A stretch of 64,000 bases of DNA. Source: Patescibacteria group bacterium (GTDB lineage Bacteria; Patescibacteriota; Minisyncoccia; UBA6257; GWB1-50-10). Of the stretch, positions 970 to 63,956 are shown one piece after another. Below the pieces are notes generated by a model. That model saw nothing but the letters and a program-made list of their open reading frames with translations. It was not told the DNA's origin and searched no databases. The stretch spans positions 16,739 through 80,738 of the forward strand of contig JAMCYI010000011.1 of the NCBI GenBank assembly GCA_023474215.1, read 5' to 3'. How positions within the stretch are numbered: the first letter of the stretch is position 1; each line of letters begins with the position of its first letter. The translations under genes and the position numbers were made by a program.

Positions 970-3153
970 TTACTTTTCTTGGAAGAGGTTGTTCACGCGG
1001 CCGACATTGATGCAGTCGGCATTCGTAAGGCACTGCCCTTCGGATTTTTCAACTTGCGATCCGCTTTGCTGCGGCTGAAGGCCGAAGCCGCTCAAGTCGG
1101 ATGATTGCGCACCAGTGATGCTTTGATTACAAACGCTGTTCGCGGTGCAAATGGGTACCGGCGTGCCCGTCGAGCTTGCGCCGGAAACGAGCGTCTTGAC
1201 CGCAGCCCACGTTGACCACGCGCTGTCCGGGTTCGCTCTTCCGTCCGTATAGTGCACCTTCACGCGGTACGCATAGATCGTGTCCGGCGAAAGACCGCTG
1301 TCTATAACCACGGGATTCGTCGTCGTTGTAACGGATATGAAGTATGGATCATATGGCGTCGTTTGCCCTTCCGCGGTCGAAGGGGTTGTGAAGAGGGCGA
1401 TCACCTTTCCGAAGCCGGAAGCTATGCCTTGCACCGCATTGGAAACCGCCGACGCAACGCTCTTCGCCACACCGTCAAAAAACCCGGCGACCGACGACAT
1501 GATCGCATGAAGAGCGATCTTCCCGCTCACGCCGGGGGTGAAACTGCCATAGGCGCTCGAAACAAAGGTCGATGTCACGGTGGCCGTTCCGCTCAAGTGA
1601 TACTGAGGGCCGTAACTGCTCCCGCAATTGCCGGAACACGACCATGAACCAAAGACATAGTTGACCGCAGGGCTCGCATTCAAGGCGACCTGCGTGCCGT
1701 TCAAAAAGCTCGCTGAACAACTGTTCTTGCCGCCGCCGCAATCGATGCCCGAAGGATTGCTCGCCACCGATCCTCCTCCAGTAGGGCTTATTTTCACGCT
1801 GACAATAAAGTTGGTCGTTGCAGACGATGCATTGCTCTGATTCGAACATGCCGTGACCCTGTTCCCCTTCACGGCATCGTATCCGATATAGCATGCCCGC
1901 ACGGTGTAGGAATGCGTCGTATCGGATGATAGGCCGGTATCCGCGTATGACGTCGTCGAAGACGACATCGTAGACAAAAGCGATCCGTCCCGCCAAACCT
2001 CGATATATGAGGCCCGCCCTGAGTTATTGGTCCAGCTCAAATCGATCTCAGACGTGCCGTTTGCCGAAACCGTGAGATTCGTCGGCGCATAAGGCGGCGT
2101 GGTCACTGAAAAGGCGGTGGACGGCCACGTGCATGCGATGTTCGGTTGACCATCGGGTCCAGCATTCAAAACGGCATTTCCGGTGCTTGAAGCATAGAGA
2201 CCGCTAAGTCCCAATGTCGAACATTCGCGGACACGGTAATAGTAGGTTGTCGCCTCGCTCAAAGATCCGTTTGTCACCCCGTCGGTCTTACTGAAACTCT
2301 TCGTGGGATTCATGGAATCGGGAATCCACGGCGTATCGGTTATTTTCGAAAGCACGGGTACTTGGGAATTGTTCTCGTAGTGAAATTGATTCGTCGTCAC
2401 AAAATATGTCGAAGTGCTTCGTTCGATCAAGCCATAGTAGGTTGTCGAAGTCGTGTTATCTTTCCAACTCACTGTGGTAAAGACGTCGGTCGGTGTATCT
2501 TCGGTCGCACTCGCCGAAGTCGACGTCGGATTGTTCGGTGTTACTTTCATCCGCTGCACGACGAACTGGTACGATCCGGCGGTCGATGTTGAATTGTCTT
2601 TCCAATTCAAGTAGACCGTCGAGGGGCTGTTTGCGAACGCTTGCACCAGGGTCGGCGCATCGCTCGTTGTCGGACCCTGCGACCCACCAATCGAGCACGT
2701 CGTCTGATTGCTGTAGCTGAAGTTACGAGGACCTTGAACTAACCGAAGAACGTAGGTATAACTTCCCGGTGCCGGCGGATAATCGCTATACGTATAACTC
2801 CCCCCCTGCGATTGTGGAGCATACCATATGGAACTTGTCGTTACGGAACCCGTGATGTAACCGGAGGGGGTTATGGGAACATAGTTGCCGGAAACTCTTA
2901 AAAGGTCCACCTCTTGCACTGCGGAATTCGAGCCGGTCCACGTCGTAAAGATGGCACTGTTGTAAGACTGGCAACTAACGGTATATGGCACCGGCGGTTT
3001 AGGCGGAGGTGTCGGGGATGTCTGGACGGTTATCGTATCGGAATCGCAATAGCTACTATTGCACATGCCGGCCCAAACCTTCACGGCAACAAAGCCGGTC
3101 AGGATAACGAGCACTCCAACGAAAACGATTGAAGAAATTTTCTTCCCCGTCAT
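970..3153 (-). CDS. large exported Ser/Thr-rich surface protein with repeated beta-sandwich (FN3-like) segments
   Basis: ORF 970..3219. Internal Met at 3153 gives a signal/anchor peptide MTGKKISSIVFVGVLVILTGFVAV, and an aaggaa RBS precedes it. Composition is S/T/N/G-rich throughout. Confidence 0.5.
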   Translation of the reverse strand: MTGKKISSIVFVGVLVILTGFVAVKVWAGMCNSSYCDSDTITVQTSPTPPPKPPVPYTVSCQSYNSAIFTTWTGSNSAVQEVDLLRVSGNYVPITPSGYITGSVTTSSIWYAPQSQGGSYTYSDYPPAPGSYTYVLRLVQGPRNFSYSNQTTCSIGGSQGPTTSDAPTLVQAFANSPSTVYLNWKDNSTSTAGSYQFVVQRMKVTPNNPTSTSASATEDTPTDVFTTVSWKDNTTSTTYYGLIERSTSTYFVTTNQFHYENNSQVPVLSKITDTPWIPDSMNPTKSFSKTDGVTNGSLSEATTYYYRVRECSTLGLSGLYASSTGNAVLNAGPDGQPNIACTWPSTAFSVTTPPYAPTNLTVSANGTSEIDLSWTNNSGRASYIEVWRDGSLLSTMSSSTTSYADTGLSSDTTHSYTVRACYIGYDAVKGNRVTACSNQSNASSATTNFIVSVKISPTGGGSVASNPSGIDCGGGKNSCSASFLNGTQVALNASPAVNYVFGSWSCSGNCGSSYGPQYHLSGTATVTSTFVSSAYGSFTPGVSGKIALHAIMSSVAGFFDGVAKSVASAVSNAVQGIASGFGKVIALFTTPSTAEGQTTPYDPYFISVTTTTNPVVIDSGLSPDTIYAYRVKVHYTDGRANPDSAWSTWAAVKTLVSGASSTGTPVPICTANSVCNQSITGAQSSDLSGFGLQPQQSGSQVEKSEGQCLTNADCINVGRVNNLFQEK

Positions 3154-3234
3154 TTCCTTTATTATAGCAAATCGATACGCCGAGAAACATGAAACCCCAT
3201 GAGGTAGATACACACTCATGGGGTTTGCTTGTTG

Positions 3235-4539
3235 CTAGTGAACGAGATAGACCGGCGACTGGCTCGCGGTCACGGTGCATTGCCCGTTTTGAACGGTTAC
3301 GGTTTGGCTGCTCCCGGTAAGCGTCGTGAGCGTTGCGCTTGATCCCGCGATGTTCCCGACCGTTACCGTCTGTGGAGTATTTGCCGTAGTCCAAATGGCA
3401 TCTATCGTCTTCTGATTCCCAGAAAAACGGTATTCGAAGATCCCGTTTCCGAAGCTATTGCTCTCGAAAGTCGCTCCACCGAGGATTCCCGTAAGAGTCT
3501 GGTAGGCATCGTAGTCCTCTTTTGAAGACAGCGCCCGATCGCGATGAACGAGACCGAAGTTATCCTCGTAAGGATCGCCCGTCCCGTCATCCCGGAAATC
3601 GTACCAAAATACCTTTTGGACTTCCGGCAGAGCGAGCAGTTGGACATATGCGCGGACCAGGTAGTCGGCTTGCTGGCTTTCTGATACGTAAGACACTCCC
3701 GTCGTCCATCCTATCTCGGTAATCCATAGGGGCTTATCCGGAAACAAGTCGTGGAAACCGGCGATCTGTCCGACGAGCATGCTGGGATAGGTGGTGTCGC
3801 CGCGCACCGTGATATCGGGTGCCACGCCGGGATACAAATCGACCGCAAGGATATCGAAATAGCTCGACCCGCCTGCGGCGTATACCTGGCTCACAAAAGA
3901 TGTGTCGGTTCCGACAACGCCTCCCATAAGAATATGGCTTTCCGGCGCAACGCTCATGATTGCTTCGTAACTTGCCCTCAAGAGCCGTACATAATCGTTC
4001 GCGTTGGGGGTTGGATGCCAGAACATCGAGAAATCTTCTTCGCTCCAGATTTCCCAGTAGTGAATCTGGTTTTTGTACCGACCCACAACTGTTTCCACAT
4101 AGCTGCTCCATTCAGCGAGCATGGTATCGGTCAAGGAAGACATATCCTTGTGATTGTTGGCTGCGCCCCACCATGACGCTCCATAGCAGAGCATCCCCAA
4201 CACGTTGATCTTCGCCTTCAGTTCCCCATTTACCGCCTTGTCGAACGGTGACCAATTGAATTGGTTCTTCTTCGGCTCGAGAACCGTCCACTCGAAAGAT
4301 TCCCGCTGCCATCGAATTCCGGCATCTGCCATCTTCGCGATAGCGGTACCAATGAGCGCGGTGTCGCTCCCCTGGTAACGGGTTGCAAGACAAGTAGTGG
4401 CGCCAAAAGGCCAACTTTCATATTCCGAGGCGAAGGTTGGGGAATCGGGAGGGTTCGGATTTGGATTCGGAGACGGAGCATCCGGCGGCTTGCATCCTGC
4501 AAGGGTAGCCACCAAGAGCATAAAAACTAATCGATTCAT
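3235..4539 (-). CDS. lipoprotein glycoside hydrolase (TIM-barrel, clan GH-A-like)
   Basis: Lipobox LVATLAGC followed by a PNPNPNPP linker. NQIHYWEIWSEED and LWITEIGWT motifs are typical of retaining GH-A nucleophile and acid/base regions. Confidence 0.55.
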   Translation of the reverse strand: MNRLVFMLLVATLAGCKPPDAPSPNPNPNPPDSPTFASEYESWPFGATTCLATRYQGSDTALIGTAIAKMADAGIRWQRESFEWTVLEPKKNQFNWSPFDKAVNGELKAKINVLGMLCYGASWWGAANNHKDMSSLTDTMLAEWSSYVETVVGRYKNQIHYWEIWSEEDFSMFWHPTPNANDYVRLLRASYEAIMSVAPESHILMGGVVGTDTSFVSQVYAAGGSSYFDILAVDLYPGVAPDITVRGDTTYPSMLVGQIAGFHDLFPDKPLWITEIGWTTGVSYVSESQQADYLVRAYVQLLALPEVQKVFWYDFRDDGTGDPYEDNFGLVHRDRALSSKEDYDAYQTLTGILGGATFESNSFGNGIFEYRFSGNQKTIDAIWTTANTPQTVTVGNIAGSSATLTTLTGSSQTVTVQNGQCTVTASQSPVYLVH

Positions 4540-4699: not shown

Positions 4700-6082
4700 T
4701 CACTTGAGAAGAACCATCTTCTTGGTTTGAGTGTAGTTTCCTGCACTCAAGCGATAGAAGTAGGTGCCGCTGGGAAGTGTTCCAGCAGCGAAGGATATTT
4801 CATGAACTCCTAGGTTCATTTCATCCTCGACAAGAGTTTTAACTTCTTGACCGAGAACATTGTAAACCTTGAGTGTCACGAAAGTCCTTTTCGGAATTTC
4901 GAATCGAATCGTGGTCGTCGGATTGAAGGGGTTCGGGTAGTTCTGAGACAGGGCAAAGGTGCTCGGGTTGTGAGTTGGCTCGTCAACAGCAGTCACGGTT
5001 GTTGACGACACGACGTACACGCCATCATCGGTACCGACGAGAACGCTGTCTTTCCCGTAAGGATACAGACAACTTACGTTTTTCCCGATGAAGTCGACGT
5101 CCTGCCACGTGGTACCCGAATCGGATGAATAGTAAAGACCTCCGTCTCCAGCGATACCGGTTCCGATATCGTTATGGAAGGCGGCCCATACTTTTCCATC
5201 TACAGCAAGAACGGCAGAGGCATACATGGGCATGGGAGTTTTTCCCGTCACCTGTGCCCAACTTATGCCGTCATCCGTCGAACGGAAAACACCTTCTCCA
5301 TCGGTCGCCGCGAAGACGAAACCAGTCGAAGAATCTGAGGTAAGACCCCAAATGTTATAGCCGTTGGCTTTCATCGTTCCGTCGGGATTCGTGCTACCGT
5401 CTCCGATAGTACCGATCTCGCCGATTAAACCGCTGTCGGATTTTATCCAACTACCGCTATCACCATTGGCGGTGGAACGATAGATGCCCTCGACATAACC
5501 TTGAGGGTCACCATTACCGGTACCCGCAATGACTGTTCCTTTTGGCGTGACAGTTACGGCACGGAATCCCCCGATTGGAGGATTGAGCACATCGGACCAA
5601 CTTGAACCATTATCGCTCGAACGATAAATGGAACCGCCAAAGCTCGTTCCTACAAATATGTTGGAATCCTTCACCGCTATTGCTAACGGGCTCGGAGAAC
5701 TCATTTTAGAAACGGAGTTCCAAGAATTACCATTGTCAGTGGAATTAAAAAGATCTCCTCCCGTTCCCAAAAACAAGGTTCCGTTTGAACTCGCCTCGAT
5801 CGCATACGCAGAGGCAAACGGCATATTGGCGCCCTTCAGACCATTCATTAAATGGACCCAGGTGCTCCCCCCATTTGAGGAACGATAAAGATAATCGGTT
5901 CCGGTACCCACGAAAATAGTTCCTGTTCTGTCCACAAAAAGACATTGGGCAGCGGCATTGACCTTCACTCCGTCCAATACCCGATCCACGCCGAAATTCG
6001 TCGTAGCACTTTGCTGTGCCACGGCATCTACCGGCATCATGCTCGCAAGGAGCACAAAAGCCGAAAGAATGATTGCTTTCAT
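4700..6082 (-). CDS. exported BNR/Asp-box repeat protein with T9SS-type C-terminal sorting domain
   Basis: Signal peptide present. At least five SxDxGxTW Asp-box repeats (SSNGGSTW, STDNGNSW, SSDNGSSW, STDDGISW, SSDSGTTW). C-terminus NYPNPFNPTTTIRF...VYNVLGQEV...GTYFYRL...KKMVLLK matches the Por secretion system CTD consensus. Confidence 0.7.
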   Translation of the reverse strand: MKAIILSAFVLLASMMPVDAVAQQSATTNFGVDRVLDGVKVNAAAQCLFVDRTGTIFVGTGTDYLYRSSNGGSTWVHLMNGLKGANMPFASAYAIEASSNGTLFLGTGGDLFNSTDNGNSWNSVSKMSSPSPLAIAVKDSNIFVGTSFGGSIYRSSDNGSSWSDVLNPPIGGFRAVTVTPKGTVIAGTGNGDPQGYVEGIYRSTANGDSGSWIKSDSGLIGEIGTIGDGSTNPDGTMKANGYNIWGLTSDSSTGFVFAATDGEGVFRSTDDGISWAQVTGKTPMPMYASAVLAVDGKVWAAFHNDIGTGIAGDGGLYYSSDSGTTWQDVDFIGKNVSCLYPYGKDSVLVGTDDGVYVVSSTTVTAVDEPTHNPSTFALSQNYPNPFNPTTTIRFEIPKRTFVTLKVYNVLGQEVKTLVEDEMNLGVHEISFAAGTLPSGTYFYRLSAGNYTQTKKMVLLK

Positions 6083-14683: not shown

Positions 14684-14811
14684 CGCCTCTCGCTGCGCTC
14701 GGGCTAGCCACCGCCTCGCGTCCCTCGACAAGCTCGGGGCATGCTCCGGCGTTCGATTCCCCACGTGAGCCAAGCAGTTAGCTCACTCTGGCCAGGCATA
14801 GAAAATACAAA
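14684..14811 (-). repeat. tRNA-attached GC-rich element, copy A (T-type family)
   Basis: Reverse complement contains the conserved core GGGGAATCGAACGCCGGAGCATGCCCCGAGCTTGTCGAGGGACGCGAGGCGGTGGCTAGCCCGAGCGCAGCGAGAGGCGAAG. It lies between tRNA-Gly and the duplicated tRNA-Gly 3' end. Confidence 0.7.
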
Positions 14812-14841
14812 ACCCACTACAAGAGTGGGCTTTGTATTTTG

Positions 14842-14912
14842 TGCGGCCAGGGAGAATCGAACTCCCGTCTCATCCTTGGCAAGGACGTGTTCTACCACTA
14901 AACCATGACCGC
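14842..14912 (-). tRNA. tRNA-Gly (anticodon GCC)
   Basis: Manual cloverleaf: GCGGTCA acceptor, anticodon loop TTGCCAA, T-arm GGGAGTTCGATTCTCCC, 3' TGGCCGC-A. CCA is not encoded. Confidence 0.8.
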
Positions 14913-14920
14913 ATCCGCTT

Positions 14921-15124
14921 CTATTGCAATGTTCCCGGCGGAGGTAACGTTGGTCCCTTGACATAGGGTACCGATCCTGCCGGTGGCCCGACAAAATTTG
15001 TCGAAGTTGCCGCGTTGCCGCTCTTTTCGGAAGAATTACTCGTTCCAATATACGATAAAACGACAAGTAAGGCAATGAGAAAGAGAAGGATGCCTAAAAG
15101 ATAAAATATGATTTTTCTCTGCAT
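14921..15124 (-). CDS. possible small membrane protein (67 aa)
   Basis: Single TM helix IIFYLLGILLFLIALLVVLSYI. Short ORF between tRNA-Gly and tRNA-Leu, weak support. Confidence 0.2.
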   Translation of the reverse strand: MQRKIIFYLLGILLFLIALLVVLSYIGTSNSSEKSGNAATSTNFVGPPAGSVPYVKGPTLPPPGTLQ

Positions 15125-15152
15125 TTTGTGTTTACACTGAGCTTGTCGAAGT

Positions 15153-15236
15153 GTGCCCGGAGTCGGACTCGGACCGACACGCCCTTGCGGGCAACAGATC
15201 TTAAGTCTGTCGCGGCTGCCAATTACGCCATCCGGG
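15153..15236 (-). tRNA. tRNA-Leu (anticodon TAA), class II with long variable arm
   Basis: GCCCGGA acceptor, anticodon stem ACAGA/TCTGT with loop CTTAAGA, variable arm GCCC-GCAA-GGGC, T-arm GTCGG-TCCGAGT-CCGAC (C at position 55, unusual). Confidence 0.7.
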
Positions 15237-15273
15237 CAGTTTCAATTCAGTTTAACGGGTTACCGACTAAGTT

Positions 15274-16002
15274 TCAATGTTGTTTACTATTATGCGACTT
15301 ATGAATTTGATAGTCGGGTATCCTAGAAAGGAATATGGCTTTGCGCTCCAGTCCTATTGGGAACCCAGGATAATACATATAGCGCAATAACTCATCGGAA
15401 TCTTTCATCCCATACCCCAACTTCAAAGAGGCGCCATTATTAAACACACCCAGCGCTTTCAATGGGAGATTGATTTCTTTCTTAAGGATGAACATAAGCT
15501 CTTCGAGAAACTTTCTGCTACCTGACGTAAAATTGGTCCTTAATTCACGAGCAGGTCGACCGTCCTTTGTTCTAATATACTCAACGAAGAAAACACTACC
15601 GTCGCCATCAAAATAGCCCCTTATAAAATCTCTTAAATATTTTCTTGGCACACGAGGAAAGGTAATGGTTTTACTTTTACGCCTGAATCCACCAAGTTTA
15701 GTTAAAGATCCATAGAGATGTTTCGAGTGAAAACTAACATGCCAAGCATCGTCCCCCTTGCTCCTCCTCACTGGATTAGTAGAGCTCATCGCAGACCTTA
15801 TATCCATCAGAATGTGCTTATCATTAGAGCACAACACCACCCTATATGATCGCTCCTTCCTCATATAACCGTCCGCAAACCAGAAACCAAGAATGTAAGC
15901 CATGGACGATGACCACTTATCAAAGAACTTCTCATTGAGGGTATACTTTCTACTGTGATATTTGCCTTGGGTTAATATCTTCACAAAAATATTATATCTC
16001 AA
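15274..16002 (-). CDS. LAGLIDADG homing endonuclease (double-motif)
   Basis: Two LAGLIDADG motifs, ILGFWFADGY and RGYFDGDGSV, about 100 aa apart. The longest ORF starts at TTG. MAYILGFWFADGY (Met at about 15904) is an alternative start. Confidence 0.8.
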   Translation of the reverse strand: MRYNIFVKILTQGKYHSRKYTLNEKFFDKWSSSMAYILGFWFADGYMRKERSYRVVLCSNDKHILMDIRSAMSSTNPVRRSKGDDAWHVSFHSKHLYGSLTKLGGFRRKSKTITFPRVPRKYLRDFIRGYFDGDGSVFFVEYIRTKDGRPARELRTNFTSGSRKFLEELMFILKKEINLPLKALGVFNNGASLKLGYGMKDSDELLRYMYYPGFPIGLERKAIFLSRIPDYQIHKSHNSKQH

Positions 16003-16063
16003 TGAGGCTTAAATAGGAATCGAACCTAACAACTAATAAAAAGGTTTTCATCGTTGTCTTTTG

Positions 16064-16135
16064 AGGCGGCAGCCGGAGTCGGACCGGCGCATAGTGGTTT
16101 TGCAGACCACCGCGTTACCGTTTCGCCATGCCGCC
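16064..16135 (-). tRNA. tRNA-Cys (anticodon GCA)
   Basis: GGCGGCA acceptor, anticodon loop CTGCAAA, discriminator U73 as expected for Cys, T-arm GCCGG-TCCGACT-CCGGC (C55, as in the neighbouring tRNA-Leu). Confidence 0.7.
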
Positions 16136-16139
16136 AGTT

Positions 16140-16430
16140 TTATTTCGCTTGGTCGATGGAGAATTCGAGCTTCGGCATCGGCTTTATGTTCATTTTCCGA
16201 AGAAGCCTGCCTTGGATCTCGCGCCTCCGTCCTTCGATTATTTTATACACTTCTATCTCTTTTTCAAAGGGGAGGACGGAAACCTTGACCCTCGCGGCCG
16301 ACATGTCTTCCGCGACCTCGACCGACGTGATCGTTGCGAGCGCACCTCCGAAATCGAAATCGCTCTGGAAGATCTTATTCAGTTCTCCTTGGATGACGCT
16401 CCCCACTTTCAAATTTCGGTACGGCCTCAT
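16140..16430 (-). CDS. rbfA: ribosome-binding factor A
   Basis: 96-aa KH-like RbfA pattern (ELNKIF...VTSVEVAEDMSAARV). Classic position directly downstream of infB. Confidence 0.75.
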   Translation of the reverse strand: MRPYRNLKVGSVIQGELNKIFQSDFDFGGALATITSVEVAEDMSAARVKVSVLPFEKEIEVYKIIEGRRREIQGRLLRKMNIKPMPKLEFSIDQAK

Positions 16431-17842
16431 AACAAGAAGAGTAAAAGATAACCTGCTTTGATCGGCGCATCGCTTTGAACCAAAAGGCCGACTTCCGTAT
16501 CCGTAGAAGCTTCCGCGGCATCTTTCCGCCCTGATTGCAAATTCAAGATTTTCCCCTCGCCGAGTTTCCGCTTATCGCTCCATACCTCAAATGACTCCTG
16601 ATTCTTGACCGGCCCTAAAACGATCTTCCCTCCGACGACCTGTTCCTTGCCTTTTGCCGCACCGAACGTTTTCAAAATTTCGATCCTTCGCATTTCCCGC
16701 GGGGTCGATTTTTCGATGTATTCCTTGATGCTCTTTTCGAGTTCATACACGATCGGCGACTCGATGATATTCACCTTTTGCGTCTTTGCGAGATTTTCCG
16801 CCGACTTATCCGTCTTTGTCTTGAATCCAAGAACCAAAGCGTTGAAAGCGGCGGCATCCTTCACATCGTTTTCAGTGATGTTGCCGACTCCCTCTTGAAT
16901 GATCCTGACTGGAACCTGAAAATTCGTGTTTTGAATGATCGTTTTCAAGGCCTCAAGTGACGCCATTTCGTCGGACTTCAAAACGAGATTCAAATGTTCA
17001 CGGCTGTCTGATTCGACGGCTTCTTTTTCTTCGATCTTTTCCACTCCAGCGCTCTTGACCTCGAGATTGAACGACGCATGGAATTCTTCGCCGACGACCG
17101 GCATTTTTTCAAATCCAATAATGACAACTGGGGAACTCGGCGACGCCGACGGAACATTTTTCCCCAAAAAATCGTTGATTTGCCGCACCTTGCCGCTCGC
17201 ACTCTCCGCTTTGATGATTTGGCCGGTTTGGAGCGTCCCGTCCTTCAAAATGCCGCTTGCAACCACCCCTTTCCGGGGATCCTTCGTACTCCGAAGGATG
17301 ATGCCGGACGCATCATGCGACGGATCGTACTCCAAATCTTCCATTTCGGCCGCAAGAGCAATGAGATCAAGGAGCTCCGGAACGCCTTCGCCCGTCTTCG
17401 CCGATATTTCTTGCCACGAAACATTCCCGCCGTATCCTTCGAGCAGCACGCCCGCTTGCGCTAGATCCTTTTTTGTTTTCTCGATGTTGGCGTTCGATTT
17501 ATCGATCTTGTTCACGGCAACGACAAAGGGGGTTTTTGTGTTTAATGCGATTTGAATCGCTTCTTTCGTCTGCGGCTGAACGCCGTCATCCGCCGCAACG
17601 ATCAAGACCGCAATGTCCGCGACCCGCGCTCCATATTGCCGCATGTTCGAAAAAGCCTGATGGCCCGGCGTGTCGATGAACGTCATCTTCGTTCCCTTAT
17701 GTTCGATCTCGTAAGCACCGATCGATTGCGTAATGCCGCCGGCTTCCCGCGCAGCGAGGTTCGTTTTCCGAATATAATCAAGGAGCGTGGTTTTTCCGTG
17801 ATCCACGTGACCCATGATGACGATGATAGGAGGCCTCCTCAT
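16427..17842 (-). CDS. infB: translation initiation factor IF-2 (minimal form lacking N-terminal domains)
   Basis: G-domain IVIMGHVDHGKTTLLD, DTPGHQAF, NKID. Start trimmed to MRRPPIIVIMGH inside ORF 16427..17881. Confidence 0.9.
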   Translation of the reverse strand: MRRPPIIVIMGHVDHGKTTLLDYIRKTNLAAREAGGITQSIGAYEIEHKGTKMTFIDTPGHQAFSNMRQYGARVADIAVLIVAADDGVQPQTKEAIQIALNTKTPFVVAVNKIDKSNANIEKTKKDLAQAGVLLEGYGGNVSWQEISAKTGEGVPELLDLIALAAEMEDLEYDPSHDASGIILRSTKDPRKGVVASGILKDGTLQTGQIIKAESASGKVRQINDFLGKNVPSASPSSPVVIIGFEKMPVVGEEFHASFNLEVKSAGVEKIEEKEAVESDSREHLNLVLKSDEMASLEALKTIIQNTNFQVPVRIIQEGVGNITENDVKDAAAFNALVLGFKTKTDKSAENLAKTQKVNIIESPIVYELEKSIKEYIEKSTPREMRRIEILKTFGAAKGKEQVVGGKIVLGPVKNQESFEVWSDKRKLGEGKILNLQSGRKDAAEASTDTEVGLLVQSDAPIKAGYLLLFLL

Positions 17843-17907
17843 AACACTGGTAAAATTACCAGATAAATGATATAAATACAAGCAGTTCGCGGATTTTTTC
17901 GGAGTGT

Positions 17908-61988: not shown

Positions 61989-63956
61989 TTAAAGGAACGG
62001 AACGATGAGGAGAGCCACAATGTTGATAACCTTGATAAGCGGGTTAATCGCGGGACCTGCGGTATCCTTATACGGATCGCCGACGGTGTCTCCCGTAACG
62101 GCAGCCTTATGAGCATCCGACCCCTTGCCGCCGAAGTTGCCCGATTCGATGTATTTCTTTGCATTATCCCACGCGGCTCCACCAGAAGTCATGGAAATCG
62201 CGATGAAAAGTCCCGAGACGATCGTGCCGATCAAGAACCCGCCGAGGGCCTCCTTTCCCAAAACGAATCCAACGAGGAGCACCATCGCGACCGGCAAAAG
62301 CGCCGGAACAATCATTTCTCGGAGCGCCGACTTCGTCACGATGTCGACGGCCTTCTTATAATCGGGTTTCGCCGAACCCTCGAGAAGTCCCTTGATTTCC
62401 CGAAACTGCCTCCGGATTTCTTCGACAATCGAGCCGGCCGCCTTACCGACCGATTTCATGGCCATCGATCCGAATAGATAGGGAATCGAAGCTCCTAAAA
62501 TGAGGCCGATTAAGACGTATGGGTTTTGAATATCGAACGTGACATTCGAAGAGATTTTTTGAACCGCGTCTGTGTATGCACTAAAAAGCACAAGTGCGGC
62601 GAGCCCGGCCGATGCGATGGCATATCCTTTCGTTACCGCTTTCGTGGTGTTCCCGACGGCATCCAAGGCATCTGTGATCTTCCGGACCTCTTCCGGAGCA
62701 CCGCTCATTTCGGCGATACCGCCGGCATTATCCGTGATCGGCCCAAATGAATCAATGGAAACGATGATGCCGGCAACGGAAAGCATCGAAACAGCGGCGA
62801 TGGCGATGCCATAGATGCCCGCAAGCAAGTATGATCCAATGATGCCGGCAACGATGACAAGAATCGGCAGGAAGGTCGCTTCCATACCAACCGAAAGGCC
62901 AATAATGATGTTTGTTCCATGCCCCGACTTCGAAGCGTCGGCGATGTTCTTCACCGGCTTGTACTTTTTCGAAGTGTAATAATCCGTGATGACGACCATG
63001 AGAGCCGTTACGAGAAGACCGATAAGGCTCGAAAGAAATATATTCATGGCATTCCCTCCCATGAATGACTGAGCGGCAAAATAGAATAAGATCGCTGCCA
63101 CAATCAAGGCGACAGCGAGCCCTTTGTAGAGTGCACCCATAATTGATTCGCTTGTACCGAGCTTCACAAAGAAACTTCCGATGATTGAAGCAATAATCGC
63201 AAGGCCGCCCATGACGAGCGGAAAGATGAGTTGGGCACCGGAAAGCGCAAGTGCGCTTCCGATCAAAATCGAAGCGGTCAAGGTCACCGCGTACGTCTCA
63301 AAAAGATCGGCGGCCATGCCGGCGCAGTCGCCGACATTGTCGCCGACATTGTCGGCGATCACGCCCGGATTCCGCGGATCATCTTCCGGAATGCCGGCTT
63401 CAACTTTCCCGACTAAATCGGTTCCGACATCCGCCGCTTTCGTAAAGATGCCACCGCCGAGGCGGGCAAAAACAGAGATTAAGCTCGCGCCGAATCCAAG
63501 ACCGATCAAACTCCGGACATCATGCGTCAAAAGGAAGAATCCTGAAACCGCAAGAAGACCAAGACCGACGACAAGGAGTCCCGTGACCGATCCGGCCTTG
63601 AAGGCGAGCGAGAGCGCCGATTTCAACCCTCGGCTCGCTGCGTCCGTCGTTTTCGAGTTCGATCGGACGGCGACGCTCATGCCGAGAAATCCCGCGAGAG
63701 CCGAAGCGATCGAGCCGACCAAAAATCCCACGGCCGTCAGCCAGCCGAGCGCGAGGTAAATTGCGACGAAAAGAATGACCGCAACGACCCCAACCGTTTT
63801 GTACTGCCGCCCAAGATATGCGGATGACCCTTCTTGGATCGCTCTCGAAATCTCTTTCATTTTATCGCTCCCCGAACCCTGCTTTTTGAGCCAGAACGCA
63901 AGGTATCCGGTATAGAGAACTGCAAGAATGACGGGGCCGAAAATCAAATAATTCAT
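61989..63956 (-). CDS. hppA: membrane-bound proton/sodium-translocating pyrophosphatase
   Basis: [55 protein letters not shown] is the hallmark cytoplasmic loop. About 16 TM helices. Confidence 0.9.

Follow-up and report, generated by a model that had tools for sequence, protein, structure and literature searches.

INTRODUCTION

Homing endonuclease genes need not be part of an intron in order to spread, intronless homing being an established route (PMC3984707). In phage T4, the free-standing GIY-YIG endonuclease SegB is encoded in the tRNA cluster and spreads together with the surrounding tRNA genes; its 27-bp site, which includes the T-psi-C motif, has been mapped by experiment (PMC2330249). 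In the Patescibacteria, ultrasmall bacteria of the candidate phyla radiation (CPR), LAGLIDADG genes have been described inside insertion sequences of the 16S and 23S rRNA genes and in group I introns (PMC11270868). Here, we describe a LAGLIDADG endonuclease gene which is located between the genes for tRNA-Cys(GCA) and tRNA-Leu(UAA) in a stretch of 64,000 nt from a Patescibacteria group bacterium (contig JAMCYI010000011.1, positions 16,739 to 80,738; henceforth the window). It probably belongs to a cassette of ~1 kb that is lodged in a conserved infB-rbfA-tRNA-Cys-tRNA-Leu(UAA) array of the chromosome. We consider it likely that this is a free-standing LAGLIDADG cassette which moves by intronless homing and thereby co-converts its flanking tRNA genes. 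The endonuclease belongs to a large radiation of free-standing genes that flank tRNA genes.

Like SegB, the endonuclease is free-standing, is encoded among tRNA genes, and is absent from the homologous tRNA region of relatives. On the reading which we favor, it would also share with SegB the intronless homing by which neighboring tRNA genes are carried along. The two only work alike, as SegB is a GIY-YIG enzyme while the protein described here is a LAGLIDADG enzyme and not a member of the Seg family. In addition, SegB spreads upon phage co-infection and has a mapped 27-bp site, while the gene in the window resides on a bacterial chromosome and has a target site for which we can only propose a position. 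Unlike SegB, it belongs to a family whose deep clades occupy particular tRNA sites throughout a bacterial phylum.

The LAGLIDADG genes reported from CPR rRNA loci (PMC11270868) occur in the same phylum, represent the same nuclease family, and are likewise found at highly conserved RNA genes. Their insertion is explained by target-specific homing, as we propose for the cassette. They are, however, located inside the 16S and 23S rRNA genes, often in introns, while the gene described here is positioned at the boundary of an RNA gene and leaves the tRNA intact. The word "tRNA" does not occur in the main text of that study. Free-standing homing endonucleases that spread with tRNA genes are known from phage T4, and the literature searched yielded SegB and the rRNA-intron LAGLIDADG genes of CPR, but neither an account of tRNA-flanking LAGLIDADG genes nor a phylum-wide bacterial radiation of LAGLIDADG genes at tRNA boundaries.

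RESULTS AND DISCUSSION

A close relative lacks the gene and carries different tRNA alleles

Relatives of the locus were retrieved from metagenomes with the IF-2 sequence of the window and thus blind to the endonuclease (infB-sampled loci; individual loci are designated by L numbers). In L086, IF-2 and RbfA are 90% and 90.5% identical to the proteins from the window. The order in L086 is rbfA, tRNA-Cys, 8 nt, tRNA-Leu, the same small open reading frame (ORF) as in the window, and tRNA-Gly. The endonuclease gene is absent.

At the nucleotide level, the window and L086 are 83.5% identical in infB, 85.5% in rbfA, 79.6% in the small ORF, 84.8% in a cupredoxin-like ORF, 98.9% in tRNA-Ser(GCU), and 100% in tRNA-Gly. 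The values are about 66-71% for tRNA-Cys and 76% for tRNA-Leu. The most diverged features of the locus are thus the two tRNA genes on either side of the endonuclease gene, which would be expected to be among the most conserved. The differing block extends from just past the rbfA stop codon to ~25 nt beyond tRNA-Leu.

The tRNA-Cys of L086 is similar to that of L087, a relative that also lacks the endonuclease gene. The tRNA-Cys from the window is 91% identical to that of L001, a locus which carries an endonuclease gene of the same clade (clade A, see below). The endonucleases of L001 and the window are 69% identical while their IF-2 proteins share only 59% sequence identity. For tRNA-Leu, the closest allele is that of L089 (89%). 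A tRNA-Cys acceptor of the type GGCGGC(A/G) was found in 6 of 12 clade-A loci and in none of 40 others (Fisher 4.5e-5, with kinship ignored). In four comparisons of host sisters, the partner without a clade-A gene has a GGCC- or GACC-type acceptor, and the nearest host relatives without the gene have GGCC-type tRNA-Cys acceptors. Both the divergence of the tRNAs and the linkage of the acceptor are consistent with what co-conversion, or linkage to a resistant allele, would be expected to leave behind.

A mobile tRNA-endonuclease unit had been one of the options raised in an earlier note, which was made from the letters of the window. This option is strengthened by the empty site in a relative with 90% IF-2 identity, by the exceptional divergence of the flanking tRNAs, and by the patchy distribution of a site-tied clade on the host tree.

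An endonuclease family with clades tied to tRNA sites

The family was scanned in one genome per species, and clades were analyzed for the 80 best loci. There are at least 495 relatives, nearly all of them from metagenome-assembled genomes which are assigned to Patescibacteria or are labeled only "bacterium"; a few carry other labels (Bacilli, Muribaculaceae, Gammaproteobacteria). Most of the loci were sampled through the endonuclease itself, with the infB-sampled loci and phage homologs serving as controls for this bias.

Among the 80 best loci, clades match position. Clade A, which includes the gene from the window, is located downstream of tRNA-Cys, usually with tRNA-Leu(UAA) following directly. 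Clades B and C directly precede tRNA-Cys and tRNA-Asp, respectively, clade C often with tRNA-Met ahead of it. A single gene is located 5' of tRNA-Leu(GAG). The outgroup has no tRNA neighbor; one of its members, on a phage-like contig, is adjacent to a group I intron. All 16 clade-A loci which cover the upstream flank have tRNA-Cys there (inverted in L194, at a distance of 493 nt in L006). In 13 of these, tRNA-Leu(UAA) is found downstream, L196 with its different upstream neighbor being among them. These counts take in four clade-A genes from other assemblies, all of which have tRNA-Cys upstream and tRNA-Leu(UAA) downstream (one with a different upstream neighbor, one with tRNA-Cys inverted).

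A tRNA gene on the same strand within 150 nt was found in 68 of 79 genome loci. Carriage of the cassette by phages was considered and rejected. The homologs from phage contigs (IMG/VR) do not exceed 38% identity, and only 1 of 80 such loci has a tRNA on either strand within 250 nt.

In three loci, the tRNA-Cys directly upstream of the clade-A gene is encoded on the opposite strand (L194, 2349-2422; L013, 2861-2935; L017, 2814-2888), which suggests local inversions at the site. The genome of L008 holds, besides a clade-A gene, a second and only distantly related LAGLIDADG gene (5345-5914, minus strand; 33% identical). It is separated by 3 nt from a downstream tRNA-Leu(GAG)-Val-Phe-Gly array and represents a further tRNA-specific lineage. 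Among the genes without a tRNA neighbor, those most closely related to clade A are found in a phage-like contig, L014. There, a LAGLIDADG gene (3001-3579) precedes a group I intron core (4024-4260, Rfam 85 bits) by ~450 nt, in a setting of structural-looking ORFs.

In the sister clades which precede tRNA-Cys or tRNA-Asp, the endonuclease ORF often lacks a stop codon of its own. It extends 6-23 nt into the downstream tRNA and terminates either at a TAG formed by U8-A9-G10 or at a TAA or TAG in the D-loop (L035 3733, L039 3700, L030 3712, L041 3645, L021 3666, and L032 3709, among others). Because the stop codon is inside the tRNA, cleavage of the precursor by RNase P would remove it, so that expression would be coupled to 5' processing of the tRNA.

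Mobility and host history

On a tree computed from IF-2, the states clade A, clade B, and no gene are intermingled, with the window/L086, L001/L087, L101/L093, and L009/L043 as sister pairs. The infB-sampled relatives that cover the site have one clade-B gene, two GIY-YIG genes, and otherwise none. In 53 of 55 pairs, the clade-A proteins of two genomes are more alike than the respective IF-2 proteins (mean 58.5% vs. 47.4%), and the divergences of the two proteins are correlated (r = 0.5). We read this as the history of a long-lived selfish element which would move mostly among related hosts.

The enzyme would cut a long site at or beside the tRNA-Cys/tRNA-Leu junction in chromosomes which lack the gene. 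The break would be repaired by recombination from a gene-carrying copy, by which the gene would be copied in and the neighboring tRNA genes would be converted to the donor alleles. The unusual tRNA-Cys (with a GGCGGCA acceptor and with C instead of U at position 55, C55) and the unusual tRNA-Leu (with C55) would then be functional alleles that arrived with the gene or are kept linked to it. A T-arm-like stretch ahead of the gene would be the decayed 3' end of an earlier tRNA-Cys, which is now beside a -10-like box.

If this holds true, it would explain why tRNA-Cys and tRNA-Leu alleles of CPR do not follow host relationships, and tRNA genes would join rRNA genes as homing targets in reduced genomes. 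The family would provide many natural meganucleases with conserved targets. One could also test concretely whether near-invariant tRNA positions such as U55 can change under pressure from selfish nucleases.

Several points weigh against homing with co-conversion. Nuclease activity, the position of the target site, the route of transfer by homing, and the mode of expression are all what we infer from sequence comparison. The correlation of the endonuclease with IF-2 (r = 0.5) indicates that vertical inheritance may account for a good part of the history. The association with the GGCGGC acceptor is uncorrected for phylogeny. Gain in the window as opposed to loss in L086 is decided by two outgroups only, L087 and L001. 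There is no donor among the data, the best protein match besides an identical copy being ~71% identical. The tRNA census covers the 64-kb window, so that further tRNA-Cys and tRNA-Leu(UAA) genes may be present elsewhere in the genome. Finally, the assignment of the T-arm-like stretch to tRNA-Cys is statistically weak.

The main rival to a selfish element is a domesticated host gene, to which we give an outside chance. The LAGLIDADG protein would be inherited vertically and would serve the host in a tRNA operon, for instance as a DNA-binding regulator or as an RNA chaperone or maturase. That the protein is more conserved than IF-2 and that its divergence tracks host divergence would fit such a role, as would the arrangement in most loci, where the gene is on the same strand as the tRNA genes and tightly packed onto them (tRNA-Cys being inverted in L013, L017, and L194). 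There are precedents for domestication of the LAGLIDADG fold, e.g. WhiA (PMC3984707). WhiA (DUF199), a domesticated transcription factor, is also a case of a LAGLIDADG fold in bacterial chromosomes; it has, however, lost its catalytic residues and is universal in its clade, while in the family analyzed here neither catalytic Asp varies and occupancy is patchy. The gene is absent from L086, the closest relative, and from most of the infB-sampled relatives. Different clades are found on either side of tRNA-Cys in related hosts, and replacement of the flanking tRNA alleles appears to go along with that of the gene. These observations argue against domestication.

The endonuclease protein

An ORF of 242 aa with two canonical LAGLIDADG motifs had been reported by the earlier note, and both the reading of the ORF and a Pfam match bear this out. 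The motifs are ILGFWFADGY (catalytic D44) and RGYFDGDGSV (catalytic D134). The match to PF14528 (LAGLIDADG_3) scores 41.6 bits (cut-off 22.5, E 1.5e-10); none of the specific NCBIfam models matches. A database search returned 2434 homologs. In an alignment of 28 homologs, D44, D134, and 46 other positions are invariant, and invariant catalytic Asp residues are as would be expected of a working nuclease. Translation from TTG at 16002 results in 242 aa while an alternative start at GTG (15984) results in 236 aa. The N-terminal sequence YHSRKYxLNExFFDxWS is kept among the homologs, which indicates that the true start is upstream of M34, where the database call begins.

A profile search against PDB matched I-Tsp061I, PI-PkoII, and I-DmoI. 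The AlphaFold2 model (pLDDT 88, pTM 0.84) has two alpha-beta-beta-alpha-beta-beta-alpha units. With this predicted model, the best PDB match obtained by Foldseek is I-Tsp061I (2DCH; E 9e-11, TM 0.72 on target), followed by inteins, E-DreI, I-AniI, and the I-OnuI family. The protein shares with I-Tsp061I and I-DmoI (PDB 2DCH, 5AK9), which are the best matches by profile and fold, the organization as a monomer with two motifs and two such units. It differs from these archaeal, intron-encoded enzymes with a target in rDNA by its low similarity (~16% identity) and its free-standing location between tRNA genes. As judged from sequence and predicted fold, the protein is an intact single-chain LAGLIDADG enzyme and a putative nuclease.

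A second LAGLIDADG gene in the window was considered because of a weak match at 62868-63062. This is antisense within a 655-aa membrane-protein ORF and was rejected as spurious.

The two tRNA genes and position 55

The features of the locus are listed in Table 1. The tRNA-Cys gene starts 4 nt past the rbfA stop codon. It has the acceptor stem GGCGGCA/TGCCGCC (7 of 7 pairs), a T stem with 5 of 5 pairs, and U73. The tRNA-Leu(UAA) gene is uninterrupted (85 nt) and has a long variable arm and A73. The claim that both flanking tRNAs are complete is confirmed, as ARAGORN and the Rfam tRNA model accept both, with scores well above the Rfam gathering score of 29 bits.

Table 1. Features of the endonuclease locus (window coordinates; listed in the direction of the minus strand)
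Feature	Position	Strand	Basis or remark
infB	17881..16427	-	gene order
rbfA	16430..16140	-	gene order
tRNA-Cys(GCA), complete	16135..16063	-	ARAGORN; Rfam tRNA model, 62.2 bits; T-arm parsing
spacer between tRNA-Cys and endonuclease ORF, 60 nt	between 16063 and 16002	-	
relic resembling a tRNA 3' end	16029..16003	-	sequence; kept at the same place in relatives
LAGLIDADG endonuclease ORF, 242 aa	16002..15274	-	ORF call; Pfam LAGLIDADG_3
TATAAT, -10-like box	15996..15991	-	sequence
spacer between endonuclease stop codon and tRNA-Leu, 36 nt	15273..15238	-	stop codon TGA at 15276..15274
tRNA-Leu(UAA), complete	15237..15153	-	ARAGORN; Rfam tRNA model, 49.7 bits; T-arm parsing
small membrane ORF, then tRNA-Gly(GCC)	downstream of tRNA-Leu	-	

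U55 is nearly universal in tRNAs. Parsing of the T arms bears out that both cassette tRNAs have C55 (GTCGG-TCCGAGT-CCGAC in tRNA-Leu, GCCGG-TCCGACT-CCGGC in tRNA-Cys). This is the sole deviation seen in their T-loops; all stems are fully paired, and G18-G19, T54, C56, and A58 are present. The other 9 of the 11 tRNAs in the window all have GTTCGA(A/T)T, that is, U55. A survey of 265 distinct tRNAs from the CPR loci resulted in 216 with U55, 32 with G55, and 7 with C55. Residues other than U55 were found in 39 of the 265 (~15%), including 24 of 57 tRNA-Cys, mostly as G55 in tRNA-Cys and tRNA-Met. The near-universal U55/C56 seems to be relaxed in these lineages.

G55 was observed in 23 of 57 distinct tRNA-Cys and in 8 of 36 tRNA-Met(CAU) from CPR, also in some loci without a LAGLIDADG gene (loci with a G55-type tRNA-Cys or tRNA-Met include L004, L007, L008, L010, L018, L020, L026, L090, and L094). 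In L086, tRNA-Cys carries A56 (TTAGATT). G55 or C55 as a general sign of endonuclease-flanked tRNAs was considered and rejected, as the share of tRNA-Cys with G55 is about the same in loci of clade A and clade B, and as such tRNA-Cys genes are also found in some loci that have no LAGLIDADG gene. For tRNA-Leu(UAA), C55 was found only in the window and in L194, both beside clade-A genes and in different tRNA alleles. This corresponds to 2 of ~16 clade-A loci vs. none of ~30 others, which is not significant (about p=0.1).

The earlier note had suggested that the C55 tRNAs could be pseudogenes or lineage-specific variants. The second suggestion is partly upheld: residues other than U55 are found in ~15% of the CPR tRNAs sampled, but C55 in tRNA-Leu(UAA) is rare and allele-specific. 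As for the first, we consider it very unlikely that the two genes are non-functional relics and that canonical genes for tRNA-Cys and tRNA-Leu(UAA) are encoded elsewhere in the genome. The near-universality of U55 would favor this, and the 64-kb view leaves room for other copies. However, both genes have high scores (62.2 and 49.7 bits), perfectly paired stems, the conserved residues listed above, and U73 or A73. They occupy the conserved rbfA-Cys-Leu position, which holds the same genes in ~40 relatives. The identical alleles are also found in L085, which represents a second strain (rbfA 96.9% identical) with an identical endonuclease gene. Residues other than U55 in 39 of 265 CPR tRNAs, including 24 of 57 tRNA-Cys, further speak against decay. 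Because the genes are otherwise flawless and are at the syntenic position, the C55 tRNAs look functional, their C55 presumably having come with the cassette. C55 tRNAs of this kind should not be discarded as pseudogenes during annotation.

The C55 T-loops and the swapped GGCGGCA acceptor may even be immunity substitutions, which would be the case if the endonuclease reads part of the tRNA gene. We regard this as rather improbable but keep it in play because SegB recognizes the T-psi-C motif of tRNA genes. If it were true, selfish nucleases would drive change at near-universal tRNA positions, together with repeated replacement of tRNA alleles, throughout the phylum Patescibacteria.

In operons of the E. 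coli type, the position after rbfA is occupied by truB, the gene for the psi-55 synthase. Here, tRNA-Cys holds that position. The TruB-like motif GxLDPxAxG was not detected in the 64-kb window, which is uninformative for the whole genome, and the literature searched contained nothing relevant on TruB or tRNA modification in CPR.

The segment that the earlier note found to be common to both tRNAs is real: the 12-mer GTCCGACTCCGG has exactly 2 copies in the window. It was rejected as a repeat or target since the copies are out of register (nt 53-64 of tRNA-Cys, nt 59-70 of tRNA-Leu) and only mildly unexpected (with one mismatch allowed, 0.43 matches are expected, and 6 of 100 shuffles had at least 2). 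The 5' leader of tRNA-Leu, TAAACTGAATTGAAACT (15254..15238), is imperfectly repeated across the endonuclease stop codon (15286..15270). With 14 of 17 positions identical and the copies 32 nt apart, a repeat search rated it marginally above chance. Both cassette tRNAs are preceded by ..AAACT (GAAATAAAACT and GAATTGAAACT; 16136-16146 in the case of tRNA-Cys). The shared leaders and the repeat could reflect a leader preference or be the trace of an insertion junction. An encoded CCA end is absent from 10 of the 11 tRNA genes in the window, being present only in tRNA-Ser(CGA), so that the other 3' ends must be added after processing.

A tRNA-like relic ahead of the gene, and expression

The T-arm-like motif which had been noticed at the 5' end of the ORF is present. 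It corresponds to GGTTCGATTCC (16025..16015, minus strand) and is part of the longer TTAGGTTCGATTCCTATTTAAGCCTCA (Table 1). The relic reads TTAGG-TTCGATT-CCTAT followed by TTAAGCC-T-CA, which corresponds to a T arm, a 3' acceptor strand, U73, and CA. In the window, L001, and L194, TAGGTTCGATTCCTATTTA(A/G)GCCTCA is kept, and L006 has a variant of the G55 type. In the former three loci, the relic is followed by (T/C)ATAAT, 5-7 nt before the start codon; this hexamer is at the same distance from the start codon also in L004.

The relic is probably what decay has left of the 3' end of an earlier tRNA-Cys copy, and it would now be part of the 5' flank of the gene. This assignment is based on its position, on its conservation in three or four loci, and on its ..GCCTCA end, which resembles that of a GGCC-type tRNA-Cys (..CCTAGGCCTCA in L086). 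The variant in L006 also points to tRNA-Cys, as tRNA-Cys and tRNA-Met account for most of the G55 in these lineages. A comparison by nhmmer with positions 52-74 of a hidden Markov model built for CPR tRNA-Cys gave weak matches (E=4.8 for the window, 0.93 for L001).

The TATAAT is 6 nt upstream of the GTG at 15984. A pairing which involves 15991..15996 was not listed by the promoter consensus scan. The box may drive a nearly leaderless endonuclease mRNA in the window. In other clade-A loci, the gap between tRNA-Cys and the start of the endonuclease gene is 1-17 nt, and that between the end of the gene and tRNA-Leu is 8-12 nt. With 1-17 nt, there is no room for a promoter, so that their mRNA would be cut out of a tRNA precursor. 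The RNA of the spacer between tRNA-Cys and the ORF has no significant fold (z -1.1 in the window, +1.5 in L001).

The gene is not part of an intron

LAGLIDADG genes are in general intron- or intein-encoded, and the tRNA-Leu(UAA) genes of cyanobacteria and plastids are the classical hosts of group I introns. That the ORF is the remnant of a group I intron which once resided in tRNA-Leu(UAA) or another tRNA is nevertheless scarcely credible: this precedent, the tRNA-like fragment just upstream of the ORF, and the L014 gene beside a group I intron, which is among the nearest non-tRNA relatives of the clade, would fit, but both tRNAs are uninterrupted, the intergenic RNA lacks a significant fold, the tRNAs of the empty allele are 8 nt apart, the narrow margins of the other clade-A genes leave no room for a ribozyme, and no intron or ribozyme family from Rfam matches at E<=10 in 14700-16500, where only three tRNAs and noise were detected. 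The degenerated tRNA intron which the earlier note had offered as an option is thus dismissed, and a group I intron fold around the ORF, which it had named as contrary evidence, was not found at E<=10. Its description of the endonuclease as free-standing holds, given the continuous tRNAs, the lack of an Rfam intron match, and the empty site in L086.

Partial tRNA-Cys copies and a second nuclease family

In the enlarged spacers of loci without a homing endonuclease gene, no convincing decayed endonuclease remnants were detected (best tblastn E 0.019). Instead, these spacers contain GIY-YIG genes and incomplete copies of tRNA-Cys. Such incomplete copies are often seen around the locus in relatives (L006, L009, L088-L090, L093, L096), which fits repeated break and repair at the site.

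In L088 (5195-5503) and L089 (3274-3610), a copy of the 5' half of tRNA-Cys is found between rbfA and the functional tRNA-Cys. A 30-nt double hairpin interrupts this copy after nt 34. Behind the half copy, both loci have a small GIY-YIG gene (Pfam 5e-16 and 1.6e-17), by which a second family of nucleases is represented at this tRNA. A 25-nt core of the double hairpin, CGCTACGCGRGATCTGGCGAAGCCA, is absent from the window. Two unrelated genomes have it within partial tRNA-Cys copies, L088 (5231-5255, plus strand) and, twice, L006 (2529-2553 and 2592-2616, minus strand). The orientations in the two genomes are opposite, and one copy is in an anticodon loop, another in a T-loop.

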